From positions 14,972 through 78,971 of the forward strand of contig JAHBYA010000016.1 of NCBI GenBank assembly GCA_019636195.1: 64,000 nucleotides of DNA, read 5' to 3'. This document shows, piece by piece, positions 1-15,738 of this stretch. The notes below the pieces were generated by a model, which saw nothing but the letters and a program-made list of their open reading frames with translations, had not been told where the DNA came from and searched no databases. Position numbers and translations under genes: made by a program. This DNA comes from Planctomycetota bacterium (GTDB lineage Bacteria; Planctomycetota; UBA8742; UBA2392). Numbering within the stretch: the stretch's first letter is position 1; every line of letters begins with the position of its first letter.

Positions 1-2
1 CG

Positions 3-866
3 AGCGGCGGAGGCGGTGCCTCCGGACCTACGGTGAGCGGCGGCGGATCAAGCGGCCCCGGCACAGGCGCCTCATCCAGCAAGACAGGCGGCGGCTGAGG
101 TGGCGGCAAAACGGTCGGTCGGGTCGATCGGCCAACAACAGGGGGCGGAACCATTCGTCGCAGTGGCGGCCCCACAGTAAACCCTGAAGACATTCCATCC
201 TGGCAGCGCCCGTCCGTTGAGGCGCTGGAGAGTGCCGGCCGTGAGGGTCGGCCGCTGGTTGTCTGGTTCCCTGCTGAAGATGATTCGGACGCCGCGTTCT
301 CGGGCAAGGAAATCGCCGAGATCAGCAAGGCATCGGCACTGTTCATCAAGATGCCCTACACTGCGGATCGCGAAAAGTCGCCGTGGGCAGTCGATTCGGC
401 TGTGCCCGCGAGCAAGCTTCTGAGTGACAATCCGGCGCGCGACTATGGGGTCCGGGTTGGGCAGAGCACCATCCTTGTCACCGACAGTTGGGGCAACGAG
501 CACAATCGCATGACCAGCGCCCCGAACCACAAGTCATTGCAGGCGATGGTGGACAAGGTCAAGGACAAGACCGAGAAGGACAACACCAAGCTGCAAAAGA
601 CCTACGACAAAGCCAAGGCCGCGCACGAAAGTGGCGACCGCAAGTTGGCGCTGTCGGAGATCACGAAGAACTTCAAGACCGGCCTGGTTGGCCTTGCGGC
701 GCAGGAAGAGACGATTCGCCTTTACCACACCATCATGGATGAAGCTCGCGCCCAGGTGAAGGAACTGGCTGACAAGAAGGACGTGGAAGGTCTCAAGAGC
801 ATGCTCAAGGACCTGCGCAAGACCGACGTTGAGAAAGAAATCAACGAAGCCATCAAGAACAGCTAG
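3..866 (+). CDS. Putative selenoprotein (5' truncated by window edge): Gly/Ser-rich arm with in-frame UGA (96-98) followed by a thioredoxin-like/helical domain
   Basis: The frame of ORF 351..866 is open back to position 3 except for one TGA (KTGGG*GGGKT). Similarity to paralog 953..1729 starts at about 200, upstream of Met351, with no in-frame ATG/GTG/TTG between the TGA and 351. Hairpin at 113-133. Confidence 0.7.
113..133 (+). promoter_or_regulatory. SECIS-like hairpin downstream of UGA 96-98
   Basis: GGTCGGTC-GGGTC-GATCGGCC, 8-9 bp stem with G-U pairs, GGU in the apical loop, about 23 nt after the UGA. Confidence 0.6.
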
Positions 867-952: not shown

Positions 953-1729
953 ATGAACATGCGAGTCGCACTTCTGCTTACAGTCCTTGCCGGCGCCCTG
1001 ATGGCGCAGGACATGCCTTTTCCTGTGCCGCCCGCGCCGCGCAAGGCGCGTGTCGCACAGCCGGCTGTCCAGGCTGCGCCCCATTGGGTGGAAGCTTCGG
1101 CGCTGACCATGGCAATTGCGCGCGAGACGGGCCTGCCGCTGGTGTTGTGTTTTCCAGCCGACGCGGACAGCGACCTCGCCAGCGACGAGCTGCGGCAGCT
1201 CAGCACCACAAGGGCCCTGTTCATCCGGTTGCAGCGCAATGAGGCTGAACAAGCCGCGTCGATTGTGCCGGGCTGCAAAGTGATGTCCGCCAACCCCGCG
1301 GCGTCGTACCGCGTGAGCGGGCCCCGCGACGTTGCGCTGGTGTGCGACTGCCACGGCAATGAGCACTTTCGGGTAACCGGCACCCCGATCGCCGCGCGCA
1401 CGATTGCGCAAATGCTGGACAAGCTGCCCCAGCAGCTCGGCAGGCAGCAGGCCAGACTGGCGAAGCACCTTGCGAAGTTCCATGAATCCGAGTCGCGCCG
1501 TGACCGCGTGGTGGCCCTGCTGCGGGCCTTCAAGGAAGATGCTTGGGGCCTGGCTGAGTGCGACCAGCTCGCGGCCGGGTATCACAGCCTGCTGGAGGAA
1601 GGCCGCCAAGAGCTCAGGCGGGCGGTTGGCGACCGCGACGCAGCGGCATTGAAGCAGTTGCTGGCCGACTTCAAGGGCACGGAATTGCAGGACGCGATTG
1701 AGGCTGCCCTCAAACAGCAGGGCGGCTAG
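953..1729 (+). CDS. Secreted protein, paralog of the upstream putative selenoprotein (thioredoxin-like fold suspected)
   Basis: Signal peptide; ARETGLPLVLCFPADADSD...ALFIRL and LVCDCHGNEH align with GREGRPLVVWFPAEDDSD...ALFIKM and LVTDSWGNEH of the upstream gene. Confidence 0.75.
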   Translation: MNMRVALLLTVLAGALMAQDMPFPVPPAPRKARVAQPAVQAAPHWVEASALTMAIARETGLPLVLCFPADADSDLASDELRQLSTTRALFIRLQRNEAEQAASIVPGCKVMSANPAASYRVSGPRDVALVCDCHGNEHFRVTGTPIAARTIAQMLDKLPQQLGRQQARLAKHLAKFHESESRRDRVVALLRAFKEDAWGLAECDQLAAGYHSLLEEGRQELRRAVGDRDAAALKQLLADFKGTELQDAIEAALKQQGG

Positions 1730-2153: not shown

Positions 2154-2248
2154 GGCAGCATCGTACTCCTGCAAAGTCAGCCCCGCGTGAACAATTCAAC
2201 AAGGCCATGTCAGTTGGTTGCCCTGCCCGCGGCTGCTATGCTGTGCGC

Positions 2249-3655
2249 GTGTCCAAGACCGCAACCAACATTGCCACCCCGCGCGACCTGCCCAAGCTGG
2301 ATGCACTGCTTGGCGCCGCACCATTCGCCGCCCTGATCGCTTCCAGCGGACGCGACCTGGTCACGGAAGAAACCCGCCTTGCCTTAGACGCATTGCGGCG
2401 CGAAATCCGCGACGGCAACCACGTCTTTCTTTCCGAGCTTGCGCCGGATGCTCTGGCTGTCCGCGTTCAGCGCCGCCTTGAACGCATGCTGGGGCCCATC
2501 CAGTGCCGCGTTATCAACGCTACCGGCGTCATCCTGCACACCAGCCTCGGGCGCGCGCCCCTGCCGCCCAGCGCCGTCGAGGCCGCCGCGCGTGAAGCCG
2601 CCGGCTACTCGTGCCTTGAGCTGGACCGCGGCAGCGGAAAACGCAGCGACCGCGACAAGCTGGTCAACGCACTGATTGAACGCGTCACCGGCGCCGAAGC
2701 CGCCACCGTCGTCAACAACAACGCCGCGGCCACCATGATCATCTTGAACTCGCTGGCCGACGGCGCCGAGGTCGTGTGCAGCCGCGCCCACATGGTCGAA
2801 ATCGGCGGCAGCTACCGCATGCCGGACGTGATGCGCAAAGCCGGCTGCAAGCTGGTTGAAGTCGGGTGCACCAACAAGACTAAGGCCCGCGACTTTGAAG
2901 ACGCCATCACCGAGCACACGGCCATGCTGCTGAAGGTGCATACCAGCAACTACGCAATTGTCGGGTTTACCGAAGAGCCTTCACTGGAAGAACTGGTCGA
3001 AATCGGCCGCCGCCGCAACATCCCCGTGGTGTATGACCTTGGCGCCGGCAGCCTGGTTGACCTGAAACCCTACGGCATCACCCGCGAACCCAGCGTGCCC
3101 GACCTGGTGGCGACCGGCGCGGACCTGGTCTGCTTTTCCGGCGACAAGCTGCTTGGGGGCCCGCAGGCGGGCATCATCGTGGGCCGCACGGGCCTGGTGC
3201 AGCGCATCAAGAAGAACGCCCTGTTTCGCATGATGCGCTGCGACAAGTTTACGCTCAGCCTGCTGGAACATACCCTGAAGCTTTACCTTGACGCGTCAAC
3301 CGTCACCCGCAGCGTGCCGACGCTTGCGGCCATTGCACGCCCCGCCGAGCAGGTGGCCAAGCTCGCGCGCAGCATTGCAGGCCGGCTAGCCAAGCGCGGA
3401 ATCACGGCGACGCTCGCGAACAGCACCAGCCAGATCGGCGGGGGCAGCACCCCCGGCGAAGAACTGCCGACGACTGTGCTGGTGATTGACAAGCTCGGCG
3501 GATCGCCGGATGCCGCCGCCAAGCGCCTGCGCATGGGCACGCCCAGCGTGTTCTGTCGCATTGAAAATGACGCCCTGGTTTTTGACCCCCGCACACTGCT
3601 GCCCGGCCAGGATGCTGAACTGGTCAATGCCATTGCAGCCGCCAAGCAGGCGTAG
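2249..3655 (+). CDS. selA: L-seryl-tRNA(Sec) selenium transferase
   Basis: VINATGVILHTSLGRAPL, VNNNAAA, EIGGSYRMPDVM, KVHTSNY, FSGDKLLGGPQAGII motifs; start GTG 2249 is inferred. Confidence 0.95.
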   Translation: MSKTATNIATPRDLPKLDALLGAAPFAALIASSGRDLVTEETRLALDALRREIRDGNHVFLSELAPDALAVRVQRRLERMLGPIQCRVINATGVILHTSLGRAPLPPSAVEAAAREAAGYSCLELDRGSGKRSDRDKLVNALIERVTGAEAATVVNNNAAATMIILNSLADGAEVVCSRAHMVEIGGSYRMPDVMRKAGCKLVEVGCTNKTKARDFEDAITEHTAMLLKVHTSNYAIVGFTEEPSLEELVEIGRRRNIPVVYDLGAGSLVDLKPYGITREPSVPDLVATGADLVCFSGDKLLGGPQAGIIVGRTGLVQRIKKNALFRMMRCDKFTLSLLEHTLKLYLDASTVTRSVPTLAAIARPAEQVAKLARSIAGRLAKRGITATLANSTSQIGGGSTPGEELPTTVLVIDKLGGSPDAAAKRLRMGTPSVFCRIENDALVFDPRTLLPGQDAELVNAIAAAKQA

Positions 3656-3657
3656 CC

Positions 3658-4317
3658 GTGCCGGACCTGACTGTCGTTTTGCCCACGATCAATGAGGCCG
3701 GCAACATCGGCCCGCTGATTCGCCAGTTGCGCGAGGCGCTGCCGGATGCCGCGTTTCTGGTGATCGACGGCGACAGCAAAGATGACACGCGCGCGCAAGC
3801 CGCCGCCGAGGGGGCAACGGTTGTCGTAAACGCTAACGGCTACGCGGACAGCCTGCTGCAAGGCCTGCGCGAAGCCGGCACCGAATGGGTGCTGGTGCTG
3901 GATGCCGACGGCAGCCACACGGCGCACGACGCCCGAAAGTTGTGGGATGCGCGCGAGGGGACCGACATGGTCGTTGGCTCGCGCTTTGCGCCGGGCGGCG
4001 GAAGCGACGGCAGCACGTTTCGCAGATTCCTGTCACGCACGCTGGCGGGCATGTTTGCCGCGATGGCGCGCCTGCCCGCGCGCGACGTAAGCAGCGGGTT
4101 CCGGCTGTATCGGCGGGCGATGTTTGCCGACGCCAGCATCACGGCACGCTTCTTTGAAGTACAGCCGGCGCTGCTGGCGTGGGGCAAAAGACAGGGTGCG
4201 CGGGTGAAAGAGGTCGGCATTCACTATCACCCGCGCGGCAAGGGCAAAAGCAAGAACCGCGTGTTGCGGTACGGCATAGCGTTCCTGCGCCAGTTGTGGC
4301 GCCTGCGCAAGGTGTAG
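3658..4317 (+). CDS. Glycosyltransferase family 2 (polyprenol-phosphate glycosyltransferase / DPM1-like)
   Basis: VVLPTINE, IDGDSKD, LDADGSH, VVGSRF, DVSSGFRLYR motifs. Confidence 0.85.
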   Translation: MPDLTVVLPTINEAGNIGPLIRQLREALPDAAFLVIDGDSKDDTRAQAAAEGATVVVNANGYADSLLQGLREAGTEWVLVLDADGSHTAHDARKLWDAREGTDMVVGSRFAPGGGSDGSTFRRFLSRTLAGMFAAMARLPARDVSSGFRLYRRAMFADASITARFFEVQPALLAWGKRQGARVKEVGIHYHPRGKGKSKNRVLRYGIAFLRQLWRLRKV

Positions 4318-4450: not shown

Positions 4451-4574
4451 CGCGACAGTCCGGCGGACTGGCGCGAAAGCGAAGCAGCCCGCACAAAGCC
4501 CGCCTGAAGGCGGGCGACTGCGGGCGTAAGCGGAGCGTCCCGTTCAATGACCGGCGACTTTCGACTATGGAGTT

Positions 4575-4667
4575 TGGCGGGAGCACATGGGAATCGAACC
4601 CACCTGACACTTGCGCGTCACTACGGTTTTGAAGACCGAGAGGCCCACCAGGCGCCTTTCTGCTCCC
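4575..4667 (-). tRNA. selC: tRNA-Sec (anticodon UCA)
   Basis: Anticodon loop CTTCAAA, TGGT D-loop, long variable arm TGACGC-GCAA-GTGTCA, T loop TTCGATT, extended acceptor stem GGGAGCA/TGCTCCC, G73 CCA; close to selA. Confidence 0.95.
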
Positions 4668-4717
4668 GTGCTTACTTTATACCAATCGCTCCCTGCCGCT
4701 CACAGGGCGCACACGCA

Positions 4718-6628
4718 TTACCGTGAAACGCGCGAAAGCTTCAGCAGACGCGAGATGCGGTCAATGACCACCGTCAACAGTATGATCATCAGCAGGTGGG
4801 TGCTCGCCTTTTCAAACCGGAACCACTCAAAGTTGAAAGTGAAGAAGAAGCCCAGGCCGCCCACGCCGACAATGCCCAGCACCACGCCTGTGCGCACGTT
4901 GCTTTCGAACTGGAAGAAACTGTAGGTCATCCAGTCGCGCCACGACATCGGCCCGGCTGTGTAGGCAAAGCAGGTCATGCGCGAACCCAGGAACGACTGT
5001 TCAAAGCGCCGGTACGGGATGTTATCGACGGTCTCGCTGAAGACGCGCACGAGCACGCCCATGCTGTGCAACGCGATGGCAACGGTGCCGGCCAGCAAGC
5101 CGGGGCCAAAGAACGCGATAAACAGGAACGCCCACATCACCTCCGGTACGCCGCGAGCCACGAGGCCGAGCCCGCGCGCAACAACCATCTGCAACAAGCG
5201 AACAACGCGGGCAATCGGGTGAGGCGCCTCGCCCGTGAACTGTGAACTCTCCAGCATGAACGCCATCGAGTGCGGGTACGTCAGCGCCATTGCGCCCAGC
5301 ACTCCAAGCAGCGTGCCCACAATCGCCATCGCCAACGGGACCGAGGACGACTTAACCACGCGCCACACAAACCACTTGCGCAGCTCAAGCTCCCAGGCTT
5401 CCCAGGCGGCTGGTCTCCAGAAGTCCAGCGGCCCGTACTGCTCGAAGAGTCGCACGTCCTTTCCGGCATCGCGAACCTTCTGCACTTCGGCGGCATCCCC
5501 CATGCCGATCGCGGCGCCGTCAAAGTCCGGCGACAGCAGGTCTTCAAAAAACGCGAGCTTCTTGAGGTTCTCACCTGACGCAAGCTTGGCCAACGGCTCA
5601 AGATAGTTGCGCGTCTGCCCGTCCGGGCCCGAGCTGTTGCCGTAACCCATGTACCACACAGACCAGACAACGACCATCAACGCAAAACCTACACCGATGT
5701 AGCCGCGCGCGAGTTCAGAGCCTGTGCTGCGCGCCCTGACAGCGCGCGGGTGGTTCGGGTCGGTGCGCAGTTGCCGGCGTATGAAGTTGCTCGACAAATC
5801 GGCTGTCAGCGTCAACGCAAGCGTGAAGATGATCAGCGTCGTCACCTTGCCCCAGCCGCCCATCCCGATCTGGTACATGATTTCGGCGCCCAAGCCGCCG
5901 CCGCCCACCGCGCCGATTACGGCGGCGTTGCGGATCGCGCACTCGGCGCGCATCAGCGTGAACGACTGCACACTGCGCGAAGCTAGCGGCCGAATGCCGT
6001 AAAGGAACGTGTTAAGGCGCCCCGCGCCCAGCGCCCGCACCTGCTCGTACTGCCGCGGCTCTACACTGTCCCACAGTTCGCTGTACACCTTGCCCAGGAT
6101 GCCGGTGATGTTCAGCGACAACGCGACCGCGCCGGTGACCGGGCCAAGGCCCAGCGCGGCAACCAGAATGACCGCCCAGGCAAAGTCAGGAACGGCGCGC
6201 AGCACGTCAAGCACCAGGCGGCATGCGGCGCACAATCCGTGCAGCGGCAGGCGCAAAAGCCGCGACAGCAGATTTCTCCCGCCGGCCTCTCCCACACACA
6301 CCGCGCGGCTTGCACCCATCGCCAGCACATAGGCCAGGATCACCGCAATGAAGGTGGCCATGCATGCTGCTGCCAGCGTCTCAAGCGTCAGGTGCCAGCA
6401 GGTCTCAAGCCACTCGGACGAAAGCTCGGGATCTGAAAACGAAACGACCAGCGACCATGCACGCTCGATGGCACGCTCCCGCTTGGCGGAGTCCGTCAAC
6501 GCGGAGAAGTCCCACTCGGCAGCCCAGAACGCGCCCAGCACCAGCACCGCAATCGCAACCAGCGCGGCGAAGTGCCGCCACGGGCGCTTCGTCGCATACC
6601 GGTCGCGGATGACGGGTTCACTTGCCAT
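4718..6628 (-). CDS. PhnE/PtxC-type ABC permease, two permease modules fused
   Basis: Two PhnE-like halves (LRAVPDFAWA...GKVYSE...ECAIRNAAVIGAVGGGGLG and RGVPEVMWA...RVFSE...ESNVRTGVVLGIVGVGGLG). Confidence 0.85.
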   Translation of the reverse strand: MASEPVIRDRYATKRPWRHFAALVAIAVLVLGAFWAAEWDFSALTDSAKRERAIERAWSLVVSFSDPELSSEWLETCWHLTLETLAAACMATFIAVILAYVLAMGASRAVCVGEAGGRNLLSRLLRLPLHGLCAACRLVLDVLRAVPDFAWAVILVAALGLGPVTGAVALSLNITGILGKVYSELWDSVEPRQYEQVRALGAGRLNTFLYGIRPLASRSVQSFTLMRAECAIRNAAVIGAVGGGGLGAEIMYQIGMGGWGKVTTLIIFTLALTLTADLSSNFIRRQLRTDPNHPRAVRARSTGSELARGYIGVGFALMVVVWSVWYMGYGNSSGPDGQTRNYLEPLAKLASGENLKKLAFFEDLLSPDFDGAAIGMGDAAEVQKVRDAGKDVRLFEQYGPLDFWRPAAWEAWELELRKWFVWRVVKSSSVPLAMAIVGTLLGVLGAMALTYPHSMAFMLESSQFTGEAPHPIARVVRLLQMVVARGLGLVARGVPEVMWAFLFIAFFGPGLLAGTVAIALHSMGVLVRVFSETVDNIPYRRFEQSFLGSRMTCFAYTAGPMSWRDWMTYSFFQFESNVRTGVVLGIVGVGGLGFFFTFNFEWFRFEKASTHLLMIILLTVVIDRISRLLKLSRVSR

Positions 6629-7460
6629 CGGTGTCTAAAGCGACTTCATCGAGGTGCATGGCACGGTACTCCGCGCCGTACAGGTCACGCAGCAGTTCGC
6701 GTGTGATGCCGCCCGGCGGACCCTGCCAGAACAGCCGGCCATCGCGGATCGCGATCACCCGTGAAAAGTGGCCGTGCAGCAACTCAAGAGTGTGCAGATT
6801 GACCAGCAGCGTCGTGCCCATGCGACGCGCGATACCTGACAACAGTTCGATGATCTCGCGCCCCAGACGAATGTCCAGCTGGCTGACGGGCTCGTCGGCC
6901 AGCATGACCTGCGGTTTCTGGACCATCAGCCGGGCGATGGCCACTCGCTGCTGTTGGCCCCCCGACAACTCTCCCGGCATCGACCACAGCTTCTCCGCGA
7001 GTTCAACTTCAGCCAGCGCCGAGCGTGCATCCTTCAACTCTTGCGGCCAGAACAGGCTCAACAGCGCTCGCGGCAGCAGCCAGCGTCCGAGCCTTCCCAT
7101 CAGTACGTTGTGCACGACCCGCAAGTGCGGGATCAGGTTGTCGTTCTGGTACAGGATGCCGATCTCGCGCCGGACGCGCCGCAGCGCCGCGCCGCGCAAC
7201 GTGGCAGTGTCGTGCCCCAACGCCCGCACGCGTCCGCTGGTCGGCTTGATCACGGCGGCCAGCAGGCGGAACAACGTGGTCTTGCCCGCGCCGGAAGGCC
7301 CGATCACCGCGACCCGCTCGCCTTCACGAATCTGGAAGGAAAGGTCGTGCAAAGCCTCGACCCGCCCGAAACTCATGCCGGCGTTCGCCAGCTCGAAAAC
7401 ATTCGGCCCGCTGTCGTCGTGCTTTGCGGCGGCTTGGTCGATCGCTGCTGCAGTTTCCAT
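6618..7460 (-). CDS. PhnC-type ABC ATP-binding protein
   Basis: GPSGAGKTT, VHNVLMGRLG, LSGGQQQRVAIAR, LADEPVSQLD; GGAG RBS before ATG 7460. Confidence 0.9.
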   Translation of the reverse strand: METAAAIDQAAAKHDDSGPNVFELANAGMSFGRVEALHDLSFQIREGERVAVIGPSGAGKTTLFRLLAAVIKPTSGRVRALGHDTATLRGAALRRVRREIGILYQNDNLIPHLRVVHNVLMGRLGRWLLPRALLSLFWPQELKDARSALAEVELAEKLWSMPGELSGGQQQRVAIARLMVQKPQVMLADEPVSQLDIRLGREIIELLSGIARRMGTTLLVNLHTLELLHGHFSRVIAIRDGRLFWQGPPGGITRELLRDLYGAEYRAMHLDEVALDTDGK

Positions 7461-7522
7461 TGCCTGCTCCGCGGTAACAGGGGGCGGCCCGCCCGTGCCG
7501 CCCCCCGAAACGCAATACTGCA

Positions 7523-8437
7523 TCAGCTGCCGATATCTACGCCGGACTCCATGACTGCGCGGATACCGTCCCACTCTTTCATGTCGGCCTGCACGAAGCT
7601 GCCGGCTTTGAAGTAGCCGAGGATCTTCTTGCCCTCTTCACTGTTCGGGTCGAGATCCAGCAGTGCCTTGCGAATCTTGCCGATCATCTCGTCACCCAGG
7701 TCCTTGTGGGCCACAAACGAGTAATCGACGTAGGCCGGTGTCTTGTAGATGATCGGCGCCTTGGCCTTGAGGTCTGCACTGGCCTTGTCGTAGCTGGCGT
7801 AGTTCAACGCGCCCACAGCAAAGCTGCCGTCGGCGACTTGCGCCAGCGTCTTGTCGTGGCTGCCGCTGTAGCCCACGTTGTTGAAGGCATCTTCGGGCTT
7901 CTTGCCGGCCTGGGTGGTGAAAAAGTGCCGGGGCATCAGGTGGCCGCTGGTGCTGCCCTTGCTGCCGAACGTGAAGGACTTGCCGCCGGCCTTTTCCGAA
8001 AGCTCTTTCAGGTCTTTCACTTCACCGACTCCGCTGTCCTTATTGGCGATGAAGTACGTGACGAACTTCTTGTCGATGTCGCGGCAGGCCACAACCACGG
8101 CGTTGCCCTTGGTCTGCATGTCTGACTGGACCGTGGTCACTCCGCCCATCCAGGACATGTGCGCCTGGCCGTTGGCAAGCGCGGTGACGGACGCCGCATA
8201 GTTTTCGACGTGCATGTACTCAACTGGAATGCCGATCTTGCCTTCAAGGTACTTGGCGACGTTGCCGAAGTGTTCCTTCAGTTTGTCGGCGTTGTCGTCG
8301 GGGATGGCGGTGATAATCAGCTTGTCAATCTTCTTGCCGCCCCCGCTGCCGGCCTTGTTGGCGTCGTTGCCACCGCCGCAGGCGGCCATGCTGAAAATGC
8401 CCGCCATCGCGAGCGCCAGAAATAGAAAACGCTTCAT
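7523..8437 (-). CDS. PhnD/PtxB-type substrate-binding lipoprotein, resembling the putative selenate ABC transporter binding-protein family
   Basis: Lipobox MAAC; AIPD, NYAASV, WMGGVT, RDID, FTFGSKGSTSGHLMP, GYSGSHD, GALN motifs. Confidence 0.8.
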   Translation of the reverse strand: MKRFLFLALAMAGIFSMAACGGGNDANKAGSGGGKKIDKLIITAIPDDNADKLKEHFGNVAKYLEGKIGIPVEYMHVENYAASVTALANGQAHMSWMGGVTTVQSDMQTKGNAVVVACRDIDKKFVTYFIANKDSGVGEVKDLKELSEKAGGKSFTFGSKGSTSGHLMPRHFFTTQAGKKPEDAFNNVGYSGSHDKTLAQVADGSFAVGALNYASYDKASADLKAKAPIIYKTPAYVDYSFVAHKDLGDEMIGKIRKALLDLDPNSEEGKKILGYFKAGSFVQADMKEWDGIRAVMESGVDIGS

Positions 8438-8753
8438 CTTGCTCTCCGTTTCGTAAATGGCGGTGCACCGACCGCCGGTCAAATCTTGGTTTGAACAGAA
8501 AAGCCGGGTTTGAAAATCAGCGCCGGGGGCCCGCAGGGCACGCTCAGGCGCTACCGACCGGCAGCGAGGTTATCGCAGTCAGGAAAAGCCGCTGCCCACG
8601 GGCAACAGGCCATGGGCTCAGGTGAAGCCCGGCATCAGCGGCGTGGCCGCCTTGAGGATATGCGCTCTTCCCAGCACGGGCTGCATGCTACACGTTGGGG
8701 GTGTGTCGGCAAGGACAAACCGCCTTTATTGCCCAACCATGCTTGCCGATTGC

Positions 8754-14610: not shown

Positions 14611-15738
14611 TCAGTCCGTGCTTGCTGGCTCGACGAAGAAGGCTACGCTTGCCTGCGCGCACGTCTCGCGCATGGCCGTCAACTCAGCTTCCCTATCGCT
14701 GGCGTCGCCGTACGCCAGCGTCATTTCGTGCCCCCGGCGCCATTGCTCACGAGCCGACTGCCTGTCGCCCCGGCGCAAGAGCACCAGCGCGTACCGGCAA
14801 CGGTCGTATCCCTCATAAGACCGATTGCACACGGCCTGGTGCAACTCAAGCGCTTTCGCATAGCTTTCTTCAGCTTCCGCCAGCCGGCCCAACCCGGTCA
14901 GGATCATGCCTACATTTCCACGAACAATGCCGGCTGTGCGCCTATTGTCCGTTTCAAGCGCGACTTGGATTGCCGTTTCGGCGCAGTCCAGCGCTTCTTG
15001 CGCCCGCCCGAAGTCGGACAGGTACACGCAAATGTTGCCCAACGCGACAGACTCGCCGCGCCGATTGCCGGCCTGGCGATACATTTCAAGGGCCTGCTTC
15101 TGCAGCTCAAATGCGGCCTCGCGCCGGCCCCGAATGCGTTGCAGTCCTGCCATGTTGGTAACCGACATCGCCTCGACATCAGACTCGCCCGACATACGCG
15201 CCAACGCGAGGGCCTGGTTCAGCAACGACTCTGCATCTGCAAGTTCGCCAAGGACGAACTTTGCCACAGCCTGCTTGTGGACCACGGACGCCTGAAGCTT
15301 CACGTCGCCCGAAGCCACCGCAAGCTCAAATGCCCGCGCCAGCCGCTGCCCGGCCTGCCGGGCGCTGCCGGTGGTCAACATGACGTCCGCCGCGAGTTGC
15401 AGGGCCTGCGCCTGCCGTGCCGAGTCGGTTTCAAGACTCGCGGCCTGGTCAAACCAGCGCAGCGCAGACGGGTCATGCTTTGCACTTGCGAAACGGGCGG
15501 CCCGCCAGGTGTAGGCCAGCAGCGATTCCCTTAGCGCCGGGTCACCTGAGCGTTGCGCGTGCTCTGCCAACTCGGCTGCAAGCCGGTCCCGCAGCGGGTC
15601 GGGGTGAAGCTGCTCGATCAGTTTCAGCGCCAACCCATGAAGCCGCGCCCTGTCTACGGGCAGTTGCAGGTCATAGGCTGCGTCGCGCAGCACAGCGTGC
15701 CTGAAAACGTAGTCAAGTAGTCTCGCGGGCTCGTCCAT
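14611..15738 (-). CDS. TPR repeat protein
   Basis: TPR_12-like repeats (GNRRGESVALGNI, YAKALELHQAVCNR); N-terminal YVFRHAVLRDAAY motif. Confidence 0.85.
   Translation of the reverse strand: MDEPARLLDYVFRHAVLRDAAYDLQLPVDRARLHGLALKLIEQLHPDPLRDRLAAELAEHAQRSGDPALRESLLAYTWRAARFASAKHDPSALRWFDQAASLETDSARQAQALQLAADVMLTTGSARQAGQRLARAFELAVASGDVKLQASVVHKQAVAKFVLGELADAESLLNQALALARMSGESDVEAMSVTNMAGLQRIRGRREAAFELQKQALEMYRQAGNRRGESVALGNICVYLSDFGRAQEALDCAETAIQVALETDNRRTAGIVRGNVGMILTGLGRLAEAEESYAKALELHQAVCNRSYEGYDRCRYALVLLRRGDRQSAREQWRRGHEMTLAYGDASDREAELTAMRETCAQASVAFFVEPASTD

Follow-up and report, generated by a model that had tools for sequence, protein, structure and literature searches.

The stretch of DNA analysed here (the window: 64,000 nt, positions 14972–78971 of contig C8 in the source genome G000, a planctomycetotal assembly; negative window positions denote sequence upstream of it) opens within a gene, P4, which with good confidence can be read as encoding a selenoprotein of an unannotated family confined to one lineage of uncultured Planctomycetota, for which a redox-active arm is proposed. 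That P4 is a genuine selenoprotein, decoded by SelB through selenocysteine insertion sequence (SECIS) elements, we regard as highly probable from its sequence, and the UGA at 96–98 is very probably a real selenocysteine (Sec, U) codon. Indeed, as far as sequence analysis goes, P4 displays every feature by which a bacterial selenoprotein is recognized computationally. The original prediction, made from the window alone, placed one Sec in a glycine-rich arm; that residue (Sec63) is supported, but the protein has two candidate Sec residues rather than one, the other (Sec29) being encoded upstream of the window. Both would lie on an arm in front of a body that is thioredoxin-like according to the structure model and has lost its own cysteines.

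Extension of the sequence upstream confirms that the N-terminus lies outside the window and makes the ATG at C8:14881 (window −90), which a GGAGG precedes by 7 nt, the start of P4. The N-terminal peptide, MKRYSTLALAAIGAFSLMGLFAQPLSAG, is, judged by eye, a typical signal peptide. It leads to a first TGA at window −6 to −4 and a TGC at −3 to −1, the candidate Sec29-Cys30 pair of a G-U-C motif. Within the window, the frame from base 3 reads SGGGGASGPTVSGGGSSGPGTGASSSKTGGG-TGA-GGGKTVGRVDRP and stays open until the TAG at 864–866, so that the single in-frame TGA claimed for this part of the gene is indeed there. Past that TGA the earliest ATG, GTG or TTG in the frame is the ATG at 351, which opens a 171-residue open reading frame (ORF) under translation table 11 (351–866). 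Resemblance to the neighbouring paralog (953–1729) starts near base 200, ahead of this ATG, again as had been claimed. One frame joins the P4 ATG, signal peptide, arm and body, its sole interruptions being the two TGAs, and the family hidden Markov model (HMM) matches P4 across positions 1–308, spanning both of them.

A DNA contig of run X1 is identical across C8:14700–15097, the region that holds both TGAs. Three other studies, with one DNA run and two RNA-library runs, yielded contigs of an approximately 95.6%-identical strain that span C8:14784–15555, and neither TGA is altered among the differences listed. Of the 34 listed ORF differences to this strain, 27 fall at third codon positions and 28 are synonymous; all four listed between the two TGAs are synonymous, as are two just past the second. 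The sequencing runs contained at most 0.45 of the sampled words, and stretches without cover in X1 are uninformative. The runs that contain P4 are labelled as sludge or bioreactor metagenomes.

The bacterial SECIS is a stem-loop shortly 3′ of the UGA with a G in the apical loop. P4 has such a stem-loop, apical G included, shortly 3′ of each UGA, at 8–24 and at 113–133. The second is the hairpin with a GGU loop that had been noted about 23 nt downstream of the TGA; it has nine pairs, two of them G-U, its stem begins 14 nt and its loop 23 nt past the TGA (score 8.0), and it shares nucleotides with the codons for the conserved T-V-G-R-V-D-R-P motif. The two GGU-loop hairpins are probably the SECIS elements of the two P4 UGAs, one each. 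The family as a whole points the same way. Under a simple rule (a perfect hairpin of at least six effective pairs, with the stem starting 8–22 nt 3′ of the TGA), a hairpin follows 53 of 68 distinct first TGAs, 36 of the 68 at seven pairs or more; 32 of the 53 have a GGT loop, and spacings of 13 and 10 nt are the commonest. When the downstream codons were shuffled 200 times, hairpins followed on average 6.6 and at most 19 of the 68. Applied to the Cys paralogs, the same rule finds hairpins after 2 of the 13 Cys codons that come first and after 6 of the 57 in the arm. Later, non-adjacent TGAs are followed by a hairpin in 20 of 25 cases. The codons of the G-R-V motif take part in a hairpin in 6 of 8 genes whose TGA lies at most eight codons upstream, in 2 of 13 in which the TGA is distant, and in none of seven Cys paralogs. 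One of those two is the sister copy P3, which has a hairpin at its G-R-V-D-R-P codons and no UGA nearby; new Sec sites such as 96–98 may arise wherever a suitably spaced UGA comes to precede a hairpin that is already there.

The stem also covaries. In 45 aligned sequences (43 distinct), 89.2% of the cells of an eight-pair stem are paired, compared with 77.8% in column shuffles, none of 500 of which reaches the observed value (score 0.372 versus 0.167). In six of the eight stem pairs there are 42 cells changed on both sides, and controls slid along the alignment are paired at 64% or less. The peptide encoded by the stem varies (GGGAS, GGGAA, GGGSP, SSGGG) while the helix is kept, and the glycine-rich composition of the arm may be partly due to the need to encode the hairpin. 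A covariance model of the stem matches the first-TGA hairpin of P4 at C8:14965–14997 (32.6 bits, E = 2.6e-4). Genome-wide it recovers three U-U or U-C copies with long arms (56.3, 54.8 and 32.6 bits) and beyond these only matches with E ≥ 0.058, which makes it useless for finding other selenoprotein genes. Searched with Rfam at E up to 1, the region C8:11000–17000 gave only weak, irrelevant matches to small RNAs and no model matching the hairpin.

The genome has all of the Sec machinery: selA, selB, selD and tRNA-Sec. In the genome scan selB scores 339.7 bits against a cut-off of 242 and selD 395.7 bits, and selA and selC (the tRNA-Sec gene) lie within 5 kb, as originally stated. Genomic G+C content is 63.7%, and TGA terminates 987 of the 2217 ORFs of at least 300 codons, being the commonest ordinary stop; UGA is not globally recoded in this genome. 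Two likely selenoprotein genes occur elsewhere, at G000:C20:341938–343977 and G000:C22:124213–125136. They are, respectively, a formate-dehydrogenase-like molybdopterin enzyme that falls below the TIGR01553 cut-off and selD, each with one in-frame TGA.

An HMM built from P4 and its four tandem paralogs was searched against 61 genomes and found the family in 28 of them, including all 22 of the same taxonomic family, with 3–9 matches each. N-termini were assigned by a heuristic that left about one fifth of the segments without assignment. Within the taxonomic family every stop inside a match is a TGA (22 of 22 genomes), and the single TAA inside a match belongs to a weak match in another family. 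The family hallmark is a Sec-Sec or Sec-Cys dyad right behind the signal peptide, where the copies cut out mostly read A-Q-P-L-[SA]-[AG]-[GQ]-U-[UC]; vicinal U-C, U-U and U-x-x-U motifs all occur among the copies, with up to three Sec per protein. Cys-bearing homologues exist in the form of P2 and its orthologues, although the homology of the arm columns is approximate. At the place of the dyad the Cys paralogs read A-Q-C-S-G-G-G-C or P-L-S-A-C-P, and they carry 5–8 Cys with repeated C-P-x-G-G-C-P and C-S-G-G-G-C motifs. U63 of P4 stands four residues before the conserved Lys of K-x-x-G-R-V, and the last arm Cys stands four to five residues before it in 8 of 11 Cys paralogs. Moreover, G-G-G-U-G recurs in copies from two other genera (G006 and G009). 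P-L-S-A-C is a canonical lipobox and is present in a few Cys paralogs. The possibility that these are lipoproteins whose +1 residue is Sec or Cys was considered and is disfavoured by the extra G/Q in most copies; because most copies have that residue before U/C, cleavage by signal peptidase I after P-L-[SA]-A is preferred.

In databases, all 106 relatives are unnamed or called 'hypothetical protein' and come from metagenome-assembled genomes of Planctomycetes; 23 of them are exactly 203 residues long, consistent with gene calls that start behind the TGAs. Among 1.84 billion cluster representatives, 168 clusters match at E ≤ 1e-3. A pattern scan of 185,579 species genomes returned 21 loci, 18 labelled Planctomycetota, two Planctomycetaceae and one 'uncultured bacterium'. 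In genome G016 a frameshift puts the signal peptide and U-U arm of one copy (L020, G016:C1:56315–60082, at about 1278–2300) out of frame with its body; either the copy is decaying or a G-rich run contains an error. In another family of the phylum, a weak and distant match with an in-frame TGA (L028, on G043:C25) has a signal peptide whose end reads F-P-A-C-G-U-GGGGG, and Sec arms of this style may exist outside the studied family.

The AlphaFold2 model of P4, built with 59 sequences, has a mean predicted local distance difference test (pLDDT) value of 82.2 and a predicted template modelling score of 0.69. Residues 1–88 have pLDDT of about 45–58, which agrees with the flexible, low-complexity arm originally proposed, and residues 90–318 exceed 90. 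The thioredoxin-like domain without its own CxxC is likewise supported. VIA-align gives Z = 9.6 (root-mean-square deviation (rmsd) 4.2, 110 residues aligned) to DsbH (2ju5), Z = 9.4 (rmsd 2.9, 108 aligned) to a Brucella DsbH-domain protein (7tkv) and Z = 8.2–8.9 to many thioredoxins and DsbD-gamma; all 50 of the matches shown are thioredoxin folds. Foldseek matches to DsbH, DsbD-gamma and thioredoxins are modest, with E from 5.6e-4. Where the CxxC of thioredoxin-fold oxidoreductases (or a CxxS or UxxC at the start of the first helix) would stand, P4 has F-P-A-E-D-D-S-D (residues 120–127), and residues 90–318 contain no Cys at all. Helices are predicted at 207–240, 244–256, 263–288, 292–301 and 308–317. 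Across 98 family members F120, D192, G195 and N196 are invariant, P166 is nearly so, and E123 is found in 81. Column 191 (P4 codon 191, given as window 571–573) holds Cys in 38 of the 98, Ala in 41 and Thr in 12, Thr being the residue of P4; where it is Cys, residue 191 is a candidate partner for the arm Sec or Cys in some paralogs.

Sequence profiles place the body less readily. The five paralogs have no Pfam match up to E = 1 and nothing near cut-off in NCBIfam. A family profile against PDB sequences gave nothing significant, with thioredoxins at E = 0.3–0.9 and an unrelated protein best at E = 0.052. With the all-Cys paralog as query, ESM Atlas returned Thioredoxin_7/DsbH clusters, some with TPR repeats, from Planctomycetota and Verrucomicrobiota (0.82–0.85, leads only). 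Among 21 distant representatives, seven have TPR repeats, which in some lie behind the helical domain, three an N-terminal zf-HC2 anti-sigma zinc finger and one a DUF3106, and ten have nothing further. The three zf-HC2 proteins (P0248, P0257 and P0259, about 490 residues) end in the family-like body. Since the body occurs in TPR and zf-HC2 proteins, it is evidently used elsewhere as an extracytoplasmic module, and there it may serve as a sensor.

Features of the P4 locus and its surroundings (window positions unless prefixed C8; U, selenocysteine as read from TGA)
Feature	Position	Strand	Remarks
P4, whole gene	C8:14881-15837 = window -90..866	+	318 codons; window part 1..866 holds the last 288 codons and the stop
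P4, layout			Met1-Gly28 signal peptide; candidate Sec29-Cys30; Gly/Ser arm to about residue 88; body 90-318
P4, after signal peptide	C8:14881-15837	+	...QPLSAG-U-C..., second Sec within the arm
Hairpin for first TGA	8..24	+	CGGAGGC / GGT loop / GCCTCCG; stem 11 nt after TGA
Second P4 TGA	96..98	+	read as Sec63, within SSKTGGG-U-GGGKTVGR (GGG-U-GGG)
Hairpin for Sec63	113..133	+	GGTCGGTCG (113-121) / GGT loop (122-124) / CGATCGGCC (125-133)
Thioredoxin-fold domain without CxxC	183..569	+	residues ~92-220; from AlphaFold2, Foldseek and VIA-align
C-terminal helical domain	570..863	+	residues 221-318; long helix from 207
P1	C8:11379-12245	+	...QPLASQ-U-U-SGG after signal peptide, short arm
P2	C8:12589-13530	+	...AAQ-CSGCGCGGG...SCPTGGCGGGGK; six Cys, no TGA
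P3	C8:13705-14634	+	...QPLASQ-U-U-GGGGGGG
P5	window 953-1729	+	signal peptide, Pro-rich linker without Sec/Cys; same body, Cys inside body
Terminator-like hairpin after P4	888..911	+	10 G-C pairs, then CTTGCGTTTC; similar ones follow P1 and P3
selA (selenocysteine synthase)	2207..3655	+	PF03841, 459.2 bits; directly 3' of the array
Family-2 glycosyltransferase (GT2)	3658..4317	+	between selA and tRNA-Sec; position conserved
tRNA-Sec, anticodon UCA	4575..4667	-	sole UCA tRNA of the assembly (1 of 66 tRNAs)

Five paralogs stand in tandem on one strand, P4 being the fourth; three have TGA, one is all-Cys and one has no arm. Identity to P4 is 77% for P3, 57% for P2, 48% for P1 and 30% for P5. The all-Cys paralog, P2, is continuous from signal peptide through body. 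Contig C21 has two further family copies, of which one has U-U and the other three TGAs, bringing the genome to 11 Sec codons in five family genes. The triple-TGA copy (L041, G000:C21:105322–106014) reads HG-U-AS-U-RTGGAGSAQT-U-GQ behind its signal peptide and so contains U-x-x-U; it represents a divergent paralog subfamily, with hairpins after two or three of the TGAs, that is conserved in at least eight other genomes (L067–L078).

The order array (2–5 copies), selA, GT2, tRNA-Sec is kept in all seven other genomes compared (G003, G008, G021, G013, G010, G016 and G007), which represent four genera. As the array stands next to selA and tRNA-Sec everywhere checked, it may be the main reason why this lineage keeps the Sec machinery. 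A divergent Fe/Mn superoxide dismutase gene lies beside the array in six of the seven; in the source genome it is found about 3.8 kb upstream of the window (L001, 10611–11189, minus strand). Still further upstream of the array are TPR proteins. On the other side, 3′ of tRNA-Sec, there is a phosphonate-type ABC transporter (window 4718–8482, minus strand) consisting of a fused double permease of 636 residues, an ATPase and a PhnD-like binding protein; a PhnD-like binding protein is also found downstream in three of the seven relatives. The tRNA-Sec gene lies on the minus strand here and on the array strand in all seven relatives. About 190 nt around it (4498–4687) match G003 in reverse orientation at 89% identity, and the reversal is either a small inversion or an assembly artefact.

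How might such a protein work? We hypothesized that the signal peptide exports it and is cut after P-L-S-A (P-L-[SA]-A in the family), so that mature P4 would begin with G-U-C, and family members in general with (G/Q)-U-(C/U). A disordered Gly/Ser tether of about 55 residues would follow, with the second Sec four residues before K-T-V-G-R-V-D-R-P, and then the thioredoxin-fold and helical body, in which acidic residues stand where CxxC would be. The redox centre would have moved from fold to tether, where a swinging arm would do what the lost CxxC once did. Its vicinal dyad, Sec-Cys or Sec-Sec, would alternate between the selenol(ate) and the selenenylsulfide or diselenide, while a periplasmic partner or substrate would be docked by the body. 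Among the paralogs, this body would come with an arm of the Sec type, with a Cys-rich one or without any. Given that P4 is a selenoprotein, we put the chances of this redox-active arm, which is drawn by analogy, at about even; it is favoured because of the oxidoreductase fold and the neighbouring superoxide dismutase gene. A broader picture is offered more tentatively, at somewhat less than even chances: a family of periplasmic proteins, 3–9 matches per genome, with a vicinal diselenide or selenenylsulfide at the mature N-terminus, in which tether codons double as SECIS, U-U is decoded through one hairpin, the array may be why the Sec machinery is kept, and new Sec sites may arise near pre-existing hairpins.

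Several observations weigh against these readings. The AlphaFold2 model has no contact between arm and body, and neither a partner nor a reductant came to light that would favour redox activity over metal binding. At the 96–98 site itself, three orthologues from the genus (G001, G003 and G004) have neither TGA nor Cys; since the site is absent from the three orthologues read, it is a young addition to an old Sec family. The P4 U63 and the P2 Cys are off by one residue, and their homology is approximate because MAFFT placed U63 in an insertion. Five of the 34 differences of the variant contig are unlisted, for which reason a TGA change in the approximately 95.6%-identical strain is not strictly excluded, and the RNA-library contigs covering P4 may hold DNA. 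Under the simple hairpin rule, 15 of the 68 first TGAs have no perfect hairpin. Part of the stem pairing comes from composition, because the stem lies in Gly/Ala/Ser codons, and shuffled columns are still paired at 77.8%. Finally, we know of no described bacterial case in which two adjacent UGAs are decoded by one SECIS, and a literature search at the level of listings and abstracts found none; because no such case is known, the U-U forms are inferred.

Granting the selenoprotein, the same Sec/Cys arm might instead act in the periplasm as a chelator of soft metals or metalloids, namely Cu(I), Hg(II), Cd(II), Zn(II) or As(III), so as to sequester, deliver or sense them, a possible role that we consider rather unlikely. 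The C-P-x-G-G-C-P and C-S-G-G-G-C repeats, with their 5–8 Cys, would be more usual at a metal site than in a lone redox pair. The metagenomes in which the gene was found are of sludge or bioreactor origin, the zf-HC2 N-terminus in 3 of 21 distant relatives fits a sensing or binding module, and U-x-x-U and C-U are among the motifs that Table 1 of a 2026 review (PMC13188914) lists for metal-binding selenoproteins. No metal transporter or resistance gene, however, was seen beside the array, where the neighbours are superoxide dismutase, TPR proteins, selA, GT2 and the phosphonate-type ABC transporter, and the fold is of the oxidoreductase type. Moreover, a vicinal U-C or U-U dyad is a known redox unit with poor chelate geometry, and a single such dyad, as found here, speaks against a metal site.

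A selenoprotein devoted to selenium storage or transport, its multi-Sec arms serving as cargo as in animal selenoprotein P, appears very improbable. Such a role would suit proteins with as many as three Sec, the multiple paralogs of each genome (in G000, five genes with 11 Sec codons) and the tight, conserved link to selA and tRNA-Sec, but two or three Sec per 300 residues make a poor store, and the all-Cys and arm-less paralogs keep the same body. In addition, no Sec lyase or uptake gene was seen near the array, and the proteins have no homology to selenoprotein P, judging by the absence of a Pfam match.

It is harder still to credit that the TGAs are ordinary stops, the locus being a separate short ORF or a dead gene whose only product, if any, is the 171-residue protein from ATG 351. 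Gene calling does give the table-11 ORF 351–866, the N-terminus is absent from the 23 of 106 database relatives of exactly 203 residues, and the frameshifted copy in G016 indicates that decay occurs in the family. Yet the product from ATG 351 would start inside the fold, past the strand 116–120 and the helices 127–141, and would have no signal peptide. Furthermore, the stop codon at the same place is a TGA, and in no case a TAA or TAG, in all 22 genomes, the strain differences between the TGAs are silent, the hairpins are specific to TGA-bearing copies, and the all-Cys paralog runs unbroken from signal peptide to body. Equally remote is the reading of UGA by other means, which would put Gly, Trp or Cys into the arm, be it a reassigned code (UGA means Gly in some uncultured bacteria, and the TGA at 96–98 does stand amid a run of Gly codons, while Trp is the other candidate), a suppressor tRNA or near-cognate read-through, given that TGA is the commonest terminator (987 of 2217 long ORFs), that the sole tRNA with a UCA anticodon is tRNA-Sec, that Cys and not Gly or Trp occupies the matching places in paralogs, that the downstream hairpins covary and that the genes lie beside selA and tRNA-Sec.

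If the selenoprotein reading is true, P4 and its relatives add a family whose Sec residues, up to three per protein, are carried by a secreted, disordered arm and not by the fold, and whose Sec contexts comprise U-U, U-C, U-x-x-U and G-U-G. They would also be a natural test case for whether two consecutive UGAs can share a single bacterial SECIS and for how strict the spacing between UGA and SECIS is. The presence of Sec-arm, Cys-arm and arm-less paralogs in one array offers a built-in comparison of the advantage of Sec over Cys. Because public records annotate such genes wrongly, as shortened hypothetical proteins, planctomycetotal selenoproteomes are likely to be undercounted.

The family is very probably a new selenoprotein family of unusual architecture, although of a known kind (SECIS-dependent Sec, thioredoxin fold). 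The claim of a new selenoprotein is upheld by the failure of Pfam and NCBIfam to match it and by its absence from the current inventory, as represented by Table 1 of PMC13188914, which gives domain identifiers and Sec motifs for 119 prokaryotic selenoprotein families and subfamilies. That table has no U-U dipeptide and no Sec dyad right behind a signal peptide. None of its Pfam, TIGR or NF models, to which the scans extended, matches the family. A term search of the deep-Sep paper (PMC12013277) found no mention, and the listings and abstracts on Planctomycetes selenoproteins, periplasmic diselenides and adjacent Sec codons contained nothing relevant. The nearest entries of Table 1 of PMC13188914 are multi-Sec or vicinal-Sec proteins, among them the metal-binding double selenoprotein MbdU ('CU'), a putative mercuric reductase-like protein ('UxxU') and a selenobacteriocin ('SGUG'). 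With its multi-Sec families, as the table describes them, the present one shares two or three Sec, C-U or U-x-x-U motifs, Gly-flanked Sec and the usual truncation in databases.

In structure, the closest relatives are DsbH, Thioredoxin_7 and DsbD-gamma (2ju5, 7tkv and 1vrs), which have the same predicted fold (Z = 9.6, 9.4 and 8.4; Foldseek E = 5.6e-4 to 1e-3) and, like the family, are extracytoplasmic by their signal peptides. In contrast to them, the family lacks their Pfam match, the CxxC is gone from the fold and the chalcogen residues are on an N-terminal disordered arm. The layout of a thioredoxin fold without CxxC followed by a helical domain may be shared with E. coli YbbN/CnoX (3qou), the second-ranked Foldseek match (E = 6.7e-4 over 271 columns, but with template modelling scores of 0.24–0.27 and an rmsd of 18 Å). 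YbbN consists of a CxxC-less thioredoxin fold plus TPR, is cytoplasmic and has no Sec or Cys arm. The arm itself recalls animal thioredoxin reductase, in which a C-terminal Gly-Cys-Sec-Gly arm carries a redox-cycling dyad. A flexible extension at one terminus carries, in both, a Gly-flanked vicinal pair of Cys/Sec residues (here G-U-C-P/G and Q-U-U-G). The likeness is one of analogy and not of homology, since the arm of the present family is N-terminal and secreted, with a Sec-Cys or Sec-Sec order, its SECIS lies in the coding sequence and not in the 3′-untranslated region, and its body is a thioredoxin fold that, by the Pfam scan, comes with no flavin/NADPH domain.

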